From: Escherichia coli
Lineage (GTDB): Bacteria; Pseudomonadota; Gammaproteobacteria; Enterobacterales; Enterobacteriaceae
Reading direction: 5' to 3' (one strand)
Length of the DNA: 64,000 nt
Assembly: GCF_003018255.1 (NCBI RefSeq)
Contig: NZ_CP027440.1
Made by a program: the position numbers and the translations under genes. Shown one piece after another: positions 8,609-16,398 of the stretch (position 1 is its first letter; each line of letters begins with the position of its first letter). The notes under the pieces were generated by a model, which was given only the letters and a program-made list of their open reading frames with translations, did not search any database and had not been told where the DNA came from.

Positions 8609-8621
8609 TGATTATTGAACA

Positions 8622-8648
8622 AAAGCTGGCAGTTGCCAGCTTTTGTTG
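8622..8648 (+). terminator. Rho-independent terminator after metL
   Basis: Hairpin aaaagctggcagttgccagctttt followed by a T-rich tail. Confidence 0.6.
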
Positions 8649-8824
8649 TCACCTCTAAACCACCTCCTGCGGAGGTGGTGATTGATTGTCATTTTGCCTT
8701 TGGTCAGTGCCCCGGTAATAAGGGGGCTTTTGTGTTGAGCGATGAATTCACAGTGTGAATGGTGAAGTTATTTATGACAATTACAAAATGGCATTAAGTA
8801 AAAATATCTAAAACATCACCTGAT

Positions 8825-9685
8825 TTAAAATTGATAACCAATAGTAGTATAGGTTCCCCATCCTGTGTTTTTTAATTCAAATGGACCATCTCCGAAGTTA
8901 ACTTTCTCCCCAGCATTCCATTGTCCACCGTTGTGAAAATAACGTAGTGTAAATGCAAATTTCCAGTGTTCATATAGCAGGGAAAGGATATGGCTTGAAG
9001 CAATAGCATTACTGGTTCGTTTATTATTGTGTGATTTGTCCGCAAGATCGGAGCCAAAATCAAAGTTAGTAAAACTATTGTATACCAATCGCCCTCCGAA
9101 TAAATGGGTAAGAGGAATGCTATATTTTATTTTGAATCGATATCCGTCCCATTCATTTTCATTAGCGGCACCATAGTTTTGCCACTGATACTTGGCGTAT
9201 ATATTGGCAGAAAGCTTAATTGGTAGACCCGTGTCGATATCTGTACCAAGCCCCATATACCATGTACTTTGCCGGGATGACTGGTTGTCACCCATATCAT
9301 AGACATAGTTGTTTGCAATGAACCATTCTTTAAAAGGGCCGAACGCAAGATTTAATCCGGTCAATTTGTCAATGGAAAACCGAGGTTCTATTTCCGTAAA
9401 TAGTGGTGAGCCCTCATCCCAGATCCCAACATCATAGTGACTGCCGACGCCAAAGAATTTTGGTAGATCAACATAACCATAAAAATCAAACCAGTCTTTT
9501 CTTCCTGCTACAGTATATTCAGGGTAGAGGTCGTTAGTCAGTCTTGGGCCAAAGCGAGAGTCTGTGCGACCAATGACATTCAAGCTTTGATGTAACCAGC
9601 TTTCATCAATTTTAATTTCCTGAGCGTTTCCAATGCAAGGTATTAATAGAATGGATAAAGCTATCCCGTGCTTTTTTATACACAT
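8825..9685 (-). CDS. Tsx-family nucleoside-specific outer-membrane channel paralog
   Basis: 286-aa ORF with signal peptide; long colinear blocks match recalled Tsx ([98 protein letters not shown]; C-terminal aromatic GYQF). Confidence 0.85.
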
Positions 9686-9724
9686 AAATATATCTCATTA
9701 TTTATTGTTGATTTAGAGAAAAAT

Positions 9725-9752
9725 AATGCCATTCAGTGAATGAATGGCATTA
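9725..9752 (-). terminator. Hairpin terminator between the first nucleotidase gene and the Tsx-like gene
   Basis: Inverted repeat aatgccattcagtgaatgaatggcatt with T-run on the minus strand; a TATAAT-like hexamer overlaps it. Confidence 0.45.
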
Positions 9753-9763
9753 TAATTTTTTTA

Positions 9764-11383
9764 TTATTTGCTAACGTCCACCCGCATTTCATTTACCTGT
9801 GCAGGCGTAATCTTGTGGCCTTTCTTCAAATAATCGATCACGACATCGGACATGTTATTTCCGGCGCGGACCTGAACATTTTTCCCTTCTTTGAATGCCA
9901 GAAAACCATCGCCCCCCAGTGCAAGGAAAGTCGTTGTTGCAACATGGTAAATATTCGTATCAACGATCTCTTCACCATTAATTTTAAAAGATACTATGCG
10001 CTGACCTACTGGTTTCTTCGGGGTATAGCGCATTTCTGCGCCTTTTGACATTTGCAGGATGCCATTGGTAAGCGATGCCCCGTGTTCCAGTAGGTTACGC
10101 AGATCCTTACCGCTGAGATCCATTTCAGTAAGTTCATTCTTGAAGGGGAATGTACTGGTAATGTCGCCAAAGGTAATCGTGCCTGCATTTATATCCGCAC
10201 GTAAGCTGCCGGAGTTTATCAATGCAATCTGTGCAGTCGGTGCAGCGACAAGCATTGCATCGGTAAACAGGTTGCCAAGTTGCGATGACTCACCGTAGGC
10301 ACGAGTTAATGCAATCGATGATTCACCGACTGGTTGGCGTACAAGATCCGCCAGTTTTTTATTCCAGCCATTGATAACTTTTTGTGTGGTTGGATCAGGT
10401 ATCCATTCATCGGCATAAACCGTTTTCAGCTCAAAGCTCTTCACTTTATGAGTACGAGCTGTAGGGTTGACATCAAGGATTAATTTACCAATATCGATAC
10501 CGCCACTGTCAGTCGAAAGGATTAAGGTGTTGCCGACTTTGATTGGTTCTGGCGTTCCGACGTGGGCATGCCCGGTAATCAGAATATCCAATCCTTTCAC
10601 CTTGCTTGCGGTTTGAATATCTTTATCAAGAGCGCGTCTAACATCTGTATTGCCAATGCTGGACTGACGCGCCGGTACGCCTTCATGAACCAGCGCCACG
10701 GTGAGGTCAACCTTATCACGTAACTCATCGATATAATGCTGCAAATACTTCACTTCATCACGTGCTTCAATCCCCTGATTCTTGAGGGTCGCGGAAGATT
10801 TATCAAATCGGTTATTATTGTCATTATCGAGTCCCTGGAGAGAGAGCTCCGAGACCGTGTCATTAAATGCAAATACGCCGTGTAGCCCAACAATACCAAT
10901 CTTGATGCCATCTTTTTCCAGGATGGTGTAGGGCTTGTTCCAGAAGGGTTTCTCACTCTCTTTATGATAAACATTGGCTAATAAAACAGGGAAATTCGCT
11001 TTGCTTAATTGTCGGAGGGCATTATCCCAGCCATGGTCAAACTCATGATTACCGATTGATACTGCGTCAAAAGGCATGGTATTCATAATATCAATTATTG
11101 CTTCGCCCTTTGTCAGGCTACTGATATATGGCCCGGTGAAATAGTCTCCAGCATCAAAATAAAAGGTGGCTTTATTTTTGGCTTTCTCTTGTTTTACTAA
11201 CGTGGATATATTGGCAAAGCCACCAATGTCGCGTTTTCCGTCTGCGACATACGGTACTTTATAGGAATCCACATGAGCGTGAAGATCATTGGTATAAATA
11301 ATCGTGACATCCTGCGCCATAACTGAGGTCGAAAAAATAGTCAGCAATGTTGCGGCAAATAAAGTACGCTGCGCTGTTTTCAT
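9764..11383 (-). CDS. Exported bifunctional metallophosphatase/5'-nucleotidase (UshA/CpdB family), paralog A
   Basis: Signal peptide MKTAQRTLFAATLLTIFSTSVMA; metallophosphatase motifs [30 protein letters not shown] plus C-terminal 5'-nucleotidase domain. Start set at second ATG (11383), 6 nt after AAGGA; track used 11389. Confidence 0.85.
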   Translation of the reverse strand: MKTAQRTLFAATLLTIFSTSVMAQDVTIIYTNDLHAHVDSYKVPYVADGKRDIGGFANISTLVKQEKAKNKATFYFDAGDYFTGPYISSLTKGEAIIDIMNTMPFDAVSIGNHEFDHGWDNALRQLSKANFPVLLANVYHKESEKPFWNKPYTILEKDGIKIGIVGLHGVFAFNDTVSELSLQGLDNDNNNRFDKSSATLKNQGIEARDEVKYLQHYIDELRDKVDLTVALVHEGVPARQSSIGNTDVRRALDKDIQTASKVKGLDILITGHAHVGTPEPIKVGNTLILSTDSGGIDIGKLILDVNPTARTHKVKSFELKTVYADEWIPDPTTQKVINGWNKKLADLVRQPVGESSIALTRAYGESSQLGNLFTDAMLVAAPTAQIALINSGSLRADINAGTITFGDITSTFPFKNELTEMDLSGKDLRNLLEHGASLTNGILQMSKGAEMRYTPKKPVGQRIVSFKINGEEIVDTNIYHVATTTFLALGGDGFLAFKEGKNVQVRAGNNMSDVVIDYLKKGHKITPAQVNEMRVDVSK

Positions 11384-14331: not shown

Positions 14332-14338
14332 ATATCAC

Positions 14339-14360
14339 CAACGATTTCACAAGGTCGTTG
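14339..14360. promoter_or_regulatory. Candidate operator palindrome in the divergent promoter region
   Basis: CAACGA-N10-TCGTTG inverted repeat immediately upstream of the Cys-rich ORF start and about 100 bp upstream of paralog C. Confidence 0.3.
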
Positions 14361-14463
14361 ATTTTGTCCGGCAACTATCCCCTGCAGATGTGATTACTCT
14401 CACATAAATAAGTCTTTCAGAACGTAATGTAGCAATCCTTTATCTCACTGAAAGGGATTGTTT

Positions 14464-16017
14464 ATGAAAATTAAAATACTTGCTGCGGGTATCGCATTAA
14501 CACTGCCGTTCTGGGCTTGCGCTAAAGATGTCACTATTATTTATACCAACGACCTCCATGCGCATGTAGAACCTTATAAAGTGCCGTGGATCGCTGACGG
14601 TAAACGGGATATTGGCGGCTGGGCAAATATCACTACGCTGGTTAAGCAAGAAAAAGCAAAAAATAAAGCGACATGGTTTTTTGATGCGGGCGACTATTTT
14701 ACCGGGCCATATATCAGCAGCCTGACCAAAGGTAAGGCTATTATCGATATTATGAATACTATGCCGTTTGATGCCGTCACGATAGGCAACCATGAATTTG
14801 ACCACGGCTGGGACAACACATTATTACAGTTGAGTCAGGCAAAATTCCCGATTGTGCAGGGCAATGTTTTTTATCAGAACAGCAGTAAATCATTCTGGGA
14901 TAAGCCCTATACCATCATCGAAAAAGACGGTGTGAAAATAGGCGTTATAGGTTTGCACGGTGTATTTGCCTTTAATGACACAGTATCTGCTGCCACGCGA
15001 GTGGGTATTGAGGCGCGTGATGAAATTAAATGGCTACAACGTTATATCGATGAACTTAAAGGCAAGGTTGATTTGACCGTCGCCCTGATCCATGAAGGTG
15101 TTCCGGCCCGCCAGTCCAGTATGGGAGGCACAGATGTGCGTCGCGCGCTGGATAAAGATATTCAGACGGCAAGTCAGGTGAAAGGGCTGGATATTTTGAT
15201 CACCGGACATGCACATGTGGGTACGCCGGAACCGATTAAAGTCGGCAATACGCTCATCCTCTCCACTGACAGCGGCGGGATTGATGTGGGCAAACTGGTT
15301 CTCGACTACAAAGAGAAGCCGCATAATTTTACGGTGAAAAACTTCGAGCTTAAAACCATTTACGCTGACGAGTGGAAGCCCGATCCACAAACGAAACAGG
15401 TGATCGACGGCTGGAATAAAAAGCTTGATGAAGTGGTGCAACAAACGGTGGCGCAATCGCCGGTTGAATTAAAACGTGCCTATGGTGAATCGGCTTCCCT
15501 CGGGAACCTGGCGGCTGACGCTTTACTGGTAGCGGCGGGTAAAAACACCCAATTGGCGTTAACCAACTCTGGCGGCATTCGCAATGAGATCCCCGCAGGG
15601 GCGATCACGATGGGCGGCGTCATCAGTACGTTCCCGTTCCCCAACGAACTGGTGACGATGGAACTCACGGGTAAACAATTACGCAGTCTGATGGAACACG
15701 GCGCAAGTTTAAGCAATGGCGTTTTACAGGTATCGAAAGGCCTGGAAATGAAGTACGACAGCAGCAAGCCGGTTGGTCAGCGGGTAATCACACTGACTCT
15801 GAATGGCAAACCCATTGAAGATGCGACGGTTTATCACATTGCTACTCAGAGTTTCCTTGCTGATGGTGGAGATGGTTTTACCGCCTTTACCGAAGGGAAA
15901 GCGCGTAACACAACGGGCGGTTATTACGTTTATCACGCGGTGGTTGATTACTTCAAAGCGGGCAACACCATTACGGATGAACAGCTCAACGGTATGCGCG
16001 TGAAGGATATCAAATAA
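14464..16017 (+). CDS. Exported (possibly lipoprotein) bifunctional metallophosphatase/5'-nucleotidase (UshA/CpdB family), paralog C
   Basis: Track start 14458 is TTG; ATG at 14464 follows AAGGGA. Signal peptide [22 protein letters not shown] (possible lipobox Cys); motifs [30 protein letters not shown]. Confidence 0.85.
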
Positions 16018-16327
16018 AAGTGCGCACTGAATTGACTCAACTGTTTGTTACCCGTTGATTGCGCAGATCCTGTATTCGGCCTACGCGAGGGCGCAGGCCG
16101 AATCAGATGCCTTAGCATCACCATCCGGTGGCAGGACGTTGTTTTTCGAATTAGCCCAGGTGTCGCTGTGTTGTCAGAATATGAGTCAAAACGTGCGAGG
16201 TGGATTGTGCTATAGAGAAATCTTTTATCGCCTCTAATTAAGATGAGTTTTTTTCATCTTCCCTGATTTTTCCTCACCATCATTGGTTATTTTTCGGTTG
16301 ACGCCCTTCGGCTTTTCCTTCATCTTT

Positions 16328-16359
16328 ACATCTGGACGTCTAAACGGATAGATGTGCAC
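16328..16359. promoter_or_regulatory. Met boxes (MetJ operator) of the metF promoter
   Basis: Tandem AGACGTCT-like repeats acatctgg acgtctaa acggatag atgtgcac about 40-70 bp upstream of metF. Confidence 0.5.
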
Positions 16360-16398
16360 AACACAACATATAACGATAAGCGATTGATGAGGTAAGGT

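Follow-up and report, generated by a model that had tools for sequence, protein, structure and literature searches.

A composite, polymorphic metL-metF locus in Escherichia coli encoding predicted exported nucleotidases, a Tsx-like channel and a transposase-derived candidate regulator

The window analysed here is a 64-kb stretch (64,000 nucleotides) of Escherichia coli contig NZ_CP027440.1 (assembly GCF_003018255.1), in which metJ-metB-metL are followed by five island genes and then by metF (16399) and katG. These five genes encode a Tsx-like outer-membrane channel, three predicted exported nucleotidases (Nuc1, Nuc2 and Nuc3) and a cysteine-rich (Cys-rich) protein, and all of them had been described as open reading frames (ORFs) in an earlier reading of the DNA made without database searches (the sequence-only reading), whose gene calls were confirmed here. 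The locus is laid out as follows.

6176..8608, plus strand: metL, the left flank, with the junction directly after its stop codon
8609..14000: lineage-specific segment read as imported, holding the Tsx-like gene, nuc1, nuc2 and the 3' two-thirds of the Cys-rich gene
8825..9685, minus strand: Tsx-family outer-membrane nucleoside channel paralogue, signal peptide ending GNA/QE (NF011686, 1TLW)
9764..11389, minus strand: nuc1, exported metallophosphatase/5'-nucleotidase, signal peptide ending VMA/QD (RefSeq start 11383)
11424..12977, minus strand: nuc2, exported metallophosphatase/5'-nucleotidase, signal peptide ending VLA/QD
12978..13206, minus strand: AT-rich region upstream of nuc2
13207..14331, minus strand: the Cys-rich protein of 374 amino acids (aa) ('CysR'), two four-cysteine zinc ribbons and then an RNase H-like DDE-transposase fold
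14332..14463: divergent control region of 132 bp between the Cys-rich gene and nuc3, with blocks conserved across at least 12 genera
14464..16017, plus strand: nuc3, exported 5'-nucleotidase and conserved core enzyme, signal peptide ending ACA/KD, divergent from the Cys-rich gene
16249..17289, plus strand: right flank, K-12 homology restarting at 16249 in the metF promoter region
16399-17289, plus strand: metF

Comparison with the K-12-type strain DH1, in which metL and metF are spaced by 348 bp, bore out the proposal that DNA missing from K-12 lies between these genes: homology to the window ends at 8608 (the metL stop codon) and restarts at 16249. Relative to K-12 the extra DNA occupies 8609-16248 (7.64 kb), where K-12 holds 198 unrelated bases. 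The left end had been placed correctly by the sequence-only reading, and the right end had not, since an extent of 8609-16398 (~7.8 kb) had been given and the true limit is 16248/16249. The extra DNA is also AT-richer than the met flanks, as had been judged by eye, with a GC content of 0.435 over 8609-16248 (0.408 in the left part and 0.476 in the right part) vs 0.562 and 0.525 in the flanks, and a GC content at third codon positions (GC3) of 0.35-0.52 for the island genes vs 0.57-0.63 for the flanks. No tRNA was found in the island and no terminal inverted or direct repeats were found at its ends, which ruled out a transposon structure. The expected absence of tRNA and integrase was therefore upheld, while that of a transposase was not, as the Cys-rich protein is itself transposase-derived.

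The evidence for this derivation comes from the zinc ribbons and the fold. The Cys-rich protein contains 15 cysteines in 374 aa, and in an alignment of 54 family members C97 and C100 were invariant, C10, C15, C40, C43 and C77 were present in at least 90% and C74 in 83%, a pattern which argues for two zinc ribbons (C10/C15/C40/C43 and C74/C77/C97/C100). R197 and H228 were also invariant, H246 was nearly so, and a GWW..W motif was conserved. The AlphaFold2 (AF2) model scored 94.3 for the predicted local distance difference test (pLDDT) and 0.93 for the predicted template modelling score (pTM), and in this predicted model the C-terminal domain shares the RNase H-like/DDE transposase-integrase fold. 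A conserved DDE triad, as expected of an IS1 transposase, was not found in the 54-member alignment (E247 acidic in 54 of 54 members, D144 in 76% and D201 in 87%, with no acid after beta-4). Profile matches were similarly partial: transpos_IS1 gave 22.4 bits vs a cut-off of 100 over residues 74-135 only, which leaves the protein outside the IS1 family proper, and IS1_IS1595_Zn gave 23.2 bits vs a cut-off of 28, with weak InsA-type zinc-ribbon matches at residues 74-105. Longer relatives showed stronger and longer IS1 matches, reaching 34 bits on the Zn-ribbon domain.

The Cys-rich gene is under purifying selection, with a ratio of nonsynonymous to synonymous substitution rates (dN/dS) of 0.09-0.23 vs 0.014-0.04 for nuc3 and 0.03 for metL, and it occupied one place per genome in 1845 genomes at this identity level. 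Taken together, the lack of a conserved triad, the single copy, the missing terminal repeats and the purifying selection lead us to conclude that the Cys-rich protein is a domesticated derivative of an IS1-like transposase rather than an active insertion sequence (IS). The family comprises 123 clusters at 50% identity, is restricted to Enterobacterales, Vibrionales and neighbouring groups, and its relatives in Enterobacteriaceae are annotated 'cytoplasmic protein'. Two other readings were tried and rejected: a search of PHROGs for a prophage source returned only a weak transposase/Zn-ribbon match for the Cys-rich protein and a family of unknown function for Nuc1, and PADLOC, searched for anti-phage defence, had no match for any of the five proteins.

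The neighbourhoods of the family were then compared. One genome per species was scanned, which gave 35 loci and covers the close enterobacterial clade, and 33 of these have the Cys-rich gene oriented divergently to an orthologue of nuc3; such orthologues are 87-100% identical in aa sequence across Enterobacteriaceae. Among distant relatives (21-42% identity), 10 of 11 contexts contained exported nucleotide hydrolases or genes of nucleoside uptake/catabolism, a count in which the paired records L010/L011 and L012/L013 are entered separately. The distant contexts are listed below.

L009, metagenome: divergent from a nuc3-like nucleotidase
L010/L011, metagenome contigs: divergent from nupC and a nucleoside phosphorylase
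L012/L013, Salmonella Give: divergent from a porin, a class B acid phosphatase and a class II phosphodiesterase
L014, Agarivorans: divergent from nupC-deoC-deoA-deoB-deoD
L015, Vibrio scophthalmi: 26 bp downstream of a 5'-nucleotidase
L017, Vibrio taketomensis: divergent from a 5'-nucleotidase
L054, Photobacterium: divergent from a 5'-nucleotidase
L053, Thaumasiovibrio: 41 bp downstream of a nucleoside phosphorylase
L016, Atlantibacter: within a Tsx-sulfatase-anSME operon, the sole exception

The association of the family with nucleotide/nucleoside genes is strong in both the close and the distant loci. The Cys-rich protein had been described as an unexplained cytoplasmic protein in the middle of the segment, a description that did not survive, as it is a zinc-ribbon and RNase H-fold transposase derivative nearly always paired with nucleotidase or nucleoside genes. 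InsA of IS1 is itself a transcriptional repressor, and the divergent placement of the family together with its InsA-like zinc ribbons suggests, as the most economical reading, that it probably regulates the adjacent nucleotide/nucleoside genes.

Several of the distant loci merit description in their own right. In Salmonella enterica serovar Give (L012, 4023-9389), an accessory cluster of the porin, the class B acid phosphatase and a phosphodiesterase of the class II cyclic-nucleotide type, transcribed divergently from the gene of a 462-aa family member and close to an rve-type IS, looks like another exported nucleotide-hydrolysis module. In Vibrio scophthalmi (L015, 5196-5414), the palindrome TGCAAACGTTTGC lies beside a CRP-like site, TGTGAGATTACTCACT, upstream of the operon of the nucleotidase and the family member, and the element resembles a CytR/CRP nucleoprotein site; the E. 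coli region showed no CytR motif of comparable clarity. In Atlantibacter (L016, 3519-8628), an operon of a Tsx-like channel, a sulfatase and an anaerobic sulfatase-maturase is followed by an arylsulfotransferase fragment, which hints that Tsx-family channels are used for sulfated substrates.

The channel and the enzymes of the window were assigned as follows. The Tsx-like protein scored 493.2 bits with NF011686 (cut-off 311), covering residues 2-286 and placing it in the Tsx family (PF03502/NF011686), and it aligned end to end with the Tsx structure PDB 1TLW (E 1e-114); its earlier identification as a Tsx paralogue is thus supported by a score above the curated cut-off. The protein is 67% identical to Salmonella Tsx (PMC12928451), a distance that would leave room for altered channel specificity.

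As read from the sequence, Nuc1, Nuc2 and Nuc3 each carry an N-terminal Sec-type signal peptide with an AXA-type end, and all three keep the dimetal motifs DLHAH/DIHAH, GDYFTG, GNHEFD, HEG and GHAH. The UshA, NadN, Nt5e, YfkN and SoxB nucleotidase models of NCBIfam matched all three (E 1e-44 to 1e-58), the two Pfam domains Metallophos and 5_nucleotid_C are both recorded on their orthologues, and PDB 3IVD/3IVE aligns with Nuc3 at near-identity over residues 19-517 (1121.7 bits), an entry that Nuc1 matches at 762 bits. The prediction of three exported 5'-nucleotidase paralogues was therefore sustained by the family models, the Pfam domains, the 3IVD match and the visible signal peptides, and the nuc3 ORF was also correctly recognised, except that the TTG start at 14458 assigned to it lies two codons too early compared with RefSeq. 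Scores with the UshA equivalog NF007109 were 152-169 bits vs a cut-off of 600, and the three proteins are best described as predicted paralogues within the UshA/CD73 superfamily and not as UshA. Pairwise identities are 64% for Nuc1/Nuc3, 54% for Nuc1/Nuc2 and 58% for Nuc2/Nuc3, and Nuc1 carries an insertion of ~20 aa. The PDB sequence file names 3IVD/3IVE only 'Nucleotidase'; we take it to be the structural-genomics structure of c4898 of strain CFT073 with uridine or cytidine bound. A literature search on 3IVD/3IVE and the CFT073-style tags c4893-c4898 found nothing relevant.

The distribution of the locus indicates that its two parts have different histories. Among 5426 complete E. coli genomes, the full segment was present in 658, including UTI89 and Nissle 1917, and the Cys-rich gene together with nuc3 in 1838, including ST131 and SMS-3-5, so that the full form accounts for ~12%, the partial form for ~22% and the K-12-like form for ~66%. 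The full form is carried mostly by B2-type extraintestinal pathogenic E. coli (ExPEC) and commensals. Beyond E. coli, the metL...metF placement is shared by Escherichia, Pseudocitrobacter, Citrobacter, Klebsiella, Kosakonia, Phytobacter, Superficieibacter, Kluyvera and Salmonella arizonae, and both Citrobacter and Pseudocitrobacter carry the genes in the order metL, Cys-rich gene, nuc3, (CMD, LysR), metF, katG. The presence of the pair at this site across genera shows that the Cys-rich/nuc3 pair is ancestral here and was lost by K-12, and the K-12-like arrangement is accordingly the derived, deleted state.

The left part behaves as an import. Compared with the partial-form strain R10, the window was at least 95% identical from ~14280 rightward, a stretch running from the 5' end of the Cys-rich gene through the intergenic region and nuc3 to metF. 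It was 69-79% identical over 13381-13980 and had no counterpart left of 13244. This identity profile marks out a block of ~5.4 kb (~8609-14000) joined by recombination inside the Cys-rich gene, its right limit being the recombination zone at ~13980-14280. A breakpoint within the gene also explains why Nuc3 is 99.2% identical between the two strains and the Cys-rich protein only 78%. The sequence-only reading had taken the whole segment as a single accessory island, which is not what we found: atypical GC and presence/absence polymorphism are there, foreignness to the locus and mobility genes or tRNA are not, and the right 3 kb is syntenic in at least nine genera. The right pair is thus ancestral and was lost in K-12-like strains, with only the left ~5.4 kb imported.

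A second module, with the order nuc1-Tsx-nuc2-nuc3 and then the Cys-rich gene, lies away from metL-metF in Enterobacter and in some E. coli and Citrobacter (loci L026, L027, L028, L046 and L049; Enterobacter asburiae, E. cloacae, E. coli SCPM-O-B-8794, Escherichia sp. MOD1-EC7003 and Citrobacter sp. wls619), and is often followed by an arylsulfotransferase gene, as it is in Enterobacter. This differently ordered module shows that the gain of paralogues and a Tsx channel by the core pair happened more than once. A donor of the Tsx-nuc1-nuc2 block was not found, the nearest being these Enterobacter-type loci with their other gene order, where nuc1 is 85-87% identical to that of the window and Tsx only 57-60%. 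Some genomes hold both the metL-metF locus and the second module.

Further observations concern individual haplotypes and the flanks. The window copy is 98.3% identical to that of UTI89, and its haplotype is rare, with only three genomes at least 99% identical over the left block; positions 8000-17000 are 100% identical to E. coli strain JNE23-011. The flanks at 7001-8607 (3' metL) and 16249-18000 are ~94-96% identical to both K-12 and R10. Core genes of E. coli are by our own estimate usually ~98-99% identical, and the lower flank identity suggests recombination tracts travelling with each haplotype. The 198-bp spacer of K-12-type strains (L003, 1610-1807) comprises a REP-like palindrome, a terminator-like hairpin and an annotated 44-aa hypothetical ORF; no island remnants were found in it, and it had nothing in common with the same site in Citrobacter, Klebsiella and Salmonella arizonae. 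In Salmonella enterica subsp. arizonae (L051, 8848-9525) the Cys-rich gene appears truncated (residues 126-367 match) beside an intact nuc3, and in Kluyvera genomosp. 3 (L047), where no nuc3 was detected, a shortened Cys-rich gene is present; both loci look like decay stages of the ancestral pair.

Evidence on control comes chiefly from the 132-bp divergent region. Alignment of 27 orthologous Cys-rich/nuc3 intergenic regions revealed five blocks conserved at 90% or more.

14337-14347: block 1, ACCAACGATTT, part of the inverted repeat CAACGA-N10-TCGTTG (14339-14360)
14389-14404: block 2, perfect CRP consensus TGTGA-N6-TCACA
14415-14422: block 3, TTTCAGAA
14425-14430: block 4, predicted -10 element TAAxxT (TAATGT in the window)
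14448-14455: block 5, CTGAAAGG, overlapping the Shine-Dalgarno/ribosome-binding site

The TGTGA-N6-TCACA at 14389-14404 is the sole exact one in the window, where 0.10 is expected by chance. The predicted -10 element TAATGT lies 29-34 bp from the centre of the CRP site, a spacing which would put that centre near -41.5, and the predicted nuc3 promoter would thereby have the geometry of a class II CRP promoter. An RNA hairpin formed by CAACGA-N10-TCGTTG was considered and ruled out, as changes in its right arm are uncompensated in the 27 orthologous regions and make an RNA stem unlikely.

The AT-rich region upstream of nuc2 and the hairpins of the locus contain the following elements.

13110-13134: terminator-like hairpin after the Cys-rich gene
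13072-13087: CRP-like site with one mismatch, upstream of nuc2
13057-13063: TTCTGAA box, a palindromic heptamer TTCWGAA, after the CRP-like site
13023-13039: nuc2 leader hairpin
9723..9753, minus strand: hairpin with a 13-bp stem and a T-run between nuc1 and the Tsx-like gene, terminator/attenuator-like
8618..8647, plus strand: perfect hairpin with 14-bp arms, then T-rich, probably the metL terminator
8659-8679: second hairpin
16074..16103, plus strand: hairpin 3' of nuc3 (ATTCGGCC...GGCCGAAT), described earlier as REP-like, within the island and not at its junction

The heptamer TTCWGAA, which follows the CRP-like site of nuc2 as it does the CRP consensus of the nuc3 control region, has just three occurrences in 8.1 kb. 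The hairpin at 9723-9753 is strong and bidirectional with T-runs and stands ~38 nt ahead of the Tsx start codon, and that at 13023-13039 is also accompanied by a T-run; neither had an Rfam match, and both are possible attenuators. An Rfam scan of the leaders and the island returned no family at E <= 1, which ruled out a riboswitch or other known RNA in the leaders. The hairpins thought to bound the segment (8618-8647, 8659-8679 and 16074-16103) are present as proposed, the right one lying inside the true junction.

From these observations we consider it rather likely that the locus is a composite, polymorphic one for extracytoplasmic nucleotide dephosphorylation, with CRP control and a Cys-rich regulator. 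Its core is the divergent pair of nuc3, encoding a predicted Sec-exported 5'-nucleotidase, and the gene for a cytoplasmic zinc-ribbon/RNase H-fold protein descended from an IS1-like transposase, and a subset of E. coli has extended it with two nucleotidase paralogues and the Tsx channel in a recombination ending inside the Cys-rich gene. At high cAMP-CRP, nuc3 would be transcribed from its predicted class II CRP promoter and nuc2-nuc1-tsx probably from a similar, weaker one. The enzymes, exported to the periplasm, would convert nucleotides to nucleosides and phosphate, and the nucleosides could then be imported via the NupC/NupG of the core genome, with three paralogues widening the substrate range and the Tsx paralogue raising outer-membrane flux of nucleosides or substrates. 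The Cys-rich protein would no longer transpose and would act as a dedicated DNA-binding regulator at the conserved boxes of the 132-bp region. Nucleotide scavenging, the function first proposed for the segment, is plausible on this evidence. The channel had been thought to admit the nucleoside products; if the enzymes are periplasmic, entry of substrates is at least as likely. For the Cys-rich family as a whole, the corresponding proposal is that it forms an undescribed family of domesticated IS1-like transposases that serve as transcription factors dedicated to operons for exported nucleotidases, nupC/deo and related nucleoside scavenging, which we put forward tentatively, as something that may well be so and that we would stop short of calling probable.

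Several points weigh against this account. IS1 InsA has a helix-turn-helix (HTH) just where the longer relatives of the Cys-rich protein carry a helical segment of ~60 aa after the zinc ribbon, and the 374-aa enterobacterial form is without that segment, which lowers confidence that the protein binds DNA. Changes in the right arm of the inverted repeat are uncompensated among the 27 aligned intergenic regions, and no operator for the Cys-rich protein was identified in them. The Atlantibacter relative sits in a Tsx-sulfatase operon and not in a nucleotide context, and the scores of Nuc1, Nuc2 and Nuc3 fall far under every NCBIfam equivalog cut-off. Nucleosides, the cargo of classical Tsx, would already be formed inside the outer membrane by periplasmic enzymes. 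Literature searches turned up no data on the expression, enzymology or mutants of these genes.

The exported enzymes could alternatively be host-interaction factors that destroy signalling nucleotides (ATP, NAD, cyclic di-/oligonucleotides) or generate adenosine, which seems to us unlikely. AdsA, CdnP and NadN play such extracellular roles in other pathogens, and a function of this kind would account for the ExPEC-type enrichment, the full form being found in UTI89, Nissle 1917, other human-associated strains and the set of ExPEC and adherent-invasive E. coli (AIEC) of PMC12928451. The Nt5e, NadN and multifunctional 2',3'-cyclic phosphodiesterase/nucleotidase models do match all three paralogues at E 1e-35 to 1e-58. 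However, nuc3 is conserved in environmental and plant-associated Kosakonia, Phytobacter and Kluyvera and has a predicted CRP promoter of the catabolite type, the partner genes of the family elsewhere are plainly catabolic (deo, nupC, purine nucleoside phosphorylase), and the proteins bear Sec signal peptides only, with no cell-wall or surface anchor.

Less probable again is a non-regulatory role for the Cys-rich protein, as an enzyme or another kind of partner, such as a cytoplasmic nuclease or nucleotide-binding protein feeding or sensing the same pathway. The predicted RNase H-like fold would suit such a role, as would the invariant H228 and R197, the always acidic residue 247 next to a nearly invariant H246, and the short form of the protein without the HTH-like insert. 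Against this, the canonical DDE triad is not conserved (position 144 is acidic in 76% of members and beta-4 is followed by no acid), two InsA-type zinc ribbons and a divergent placement beside the target promoter are typical of DNA-binding regulators, and the protein evolves several-fold faster than the enzyme beside it.

We regard it as very improbable that the 7.6 kb as a whole is mobile, whether as a transposon moved by the Cys-rich 'transposase' or as a classical island gained by horizontal transfer. In favour of such an element are low GC, presence/absence among E. coli strains, the transposase ancestry of the Cys-rich protein and the related modules that some strains carry at a second locus on the chromosome (L027, L046, L049). 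Against it, the segment has neither terminal inverted repeats nor target duplications and contains no integrase or tRNA, the catalytic triad has not been conserved, and each genome has a single copy at this identity level. In many genera the Cys-rich/nuc3 pair is found at this same position between metL and metF, its enzyme having diverged about as much as MetL, and all three haplotypes share identical junctions, as expected of homologous replacement.

The regulated scavenging locus favoured here can be set beside systems already described. The segment has been catalogued as 'GR 31 metL..metF' of the avian pathogenic E. coli (APEC) strain BEN2908, and is common to BEN2908, UTI89, RS218, Nissle 1917, LF82 and other ExPEC/AIEC (PLoS One 2026, PMC12928451). 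GR 31 has the same four metabolic ORFs as the window (one Tsx-like and three UshA-domain proteins), and that study, like ours, suggested from in-silico analysis that nucleotide processing and nucleoside transport are coordinated; unlike ours, it does not discuss the Cys-rich gene, how the segment was assembled, the CRP site or the occurrence of these genes beyond E. coli. With the UshA/CpdB/AphA enzymes, Tsx and the CRP/CytR regulon, the island shares the enzyme superfamily, the channel family, the exported location and a CRP consensus of the kind found at nucleoside-catabolic promoters. It differs in that its enzymes fall far under the UshA cut-off, that no convincing CytR operator was seen in it and that its genes are clustered with their own transposase-derived partner, whereas those of the UshA/CpdB/AphA system are scattered. 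The Cys-rich protein shares with IS1 InsA and the IS1-IS1595 group the InsA-type four-cysteine ribbon and the RNase H-like core fold, and departs from IS1 transposases in its extra N-terminal zinc ribbon and in the lack of a conserved DDE triad, while its gene lacks inverted repeats, occurs as a single copy, keeps its synteny from genus to genus and evolves under purifying selection.

The region and its scavenging interpretation were therefore already known, being present in hundreds of annotated genomes, with a crystal structure for one of the enzymes and a role proposed in print. What is added here is the composite history, the transposase ancestry and consistent nucleotide/nucleoside partnership of the Cys-rich protein, and the conserved control region of CRP type. 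The metL-metF arrangement of K-12, commonly assumed to be the backbone, is corrected to a derived, deleted state, and three predicted exported nucleotidases set many B2/ExPEC strains and the probiotic Nissle 1917 apart from K-12. The island itself is routine pan-genome content, and the regulator hypothesis is the part of most value. A literature search for domesticated IS1 regulators of nucleoside genes found nothing; if the hypothesis is true, the Cys-rich protein would be a clean bacterial case of a transposase recruited as a pathway-specific regulator and would give the nucleoside-scavenging regulon a third type of regulator beside CytR and DeoR.

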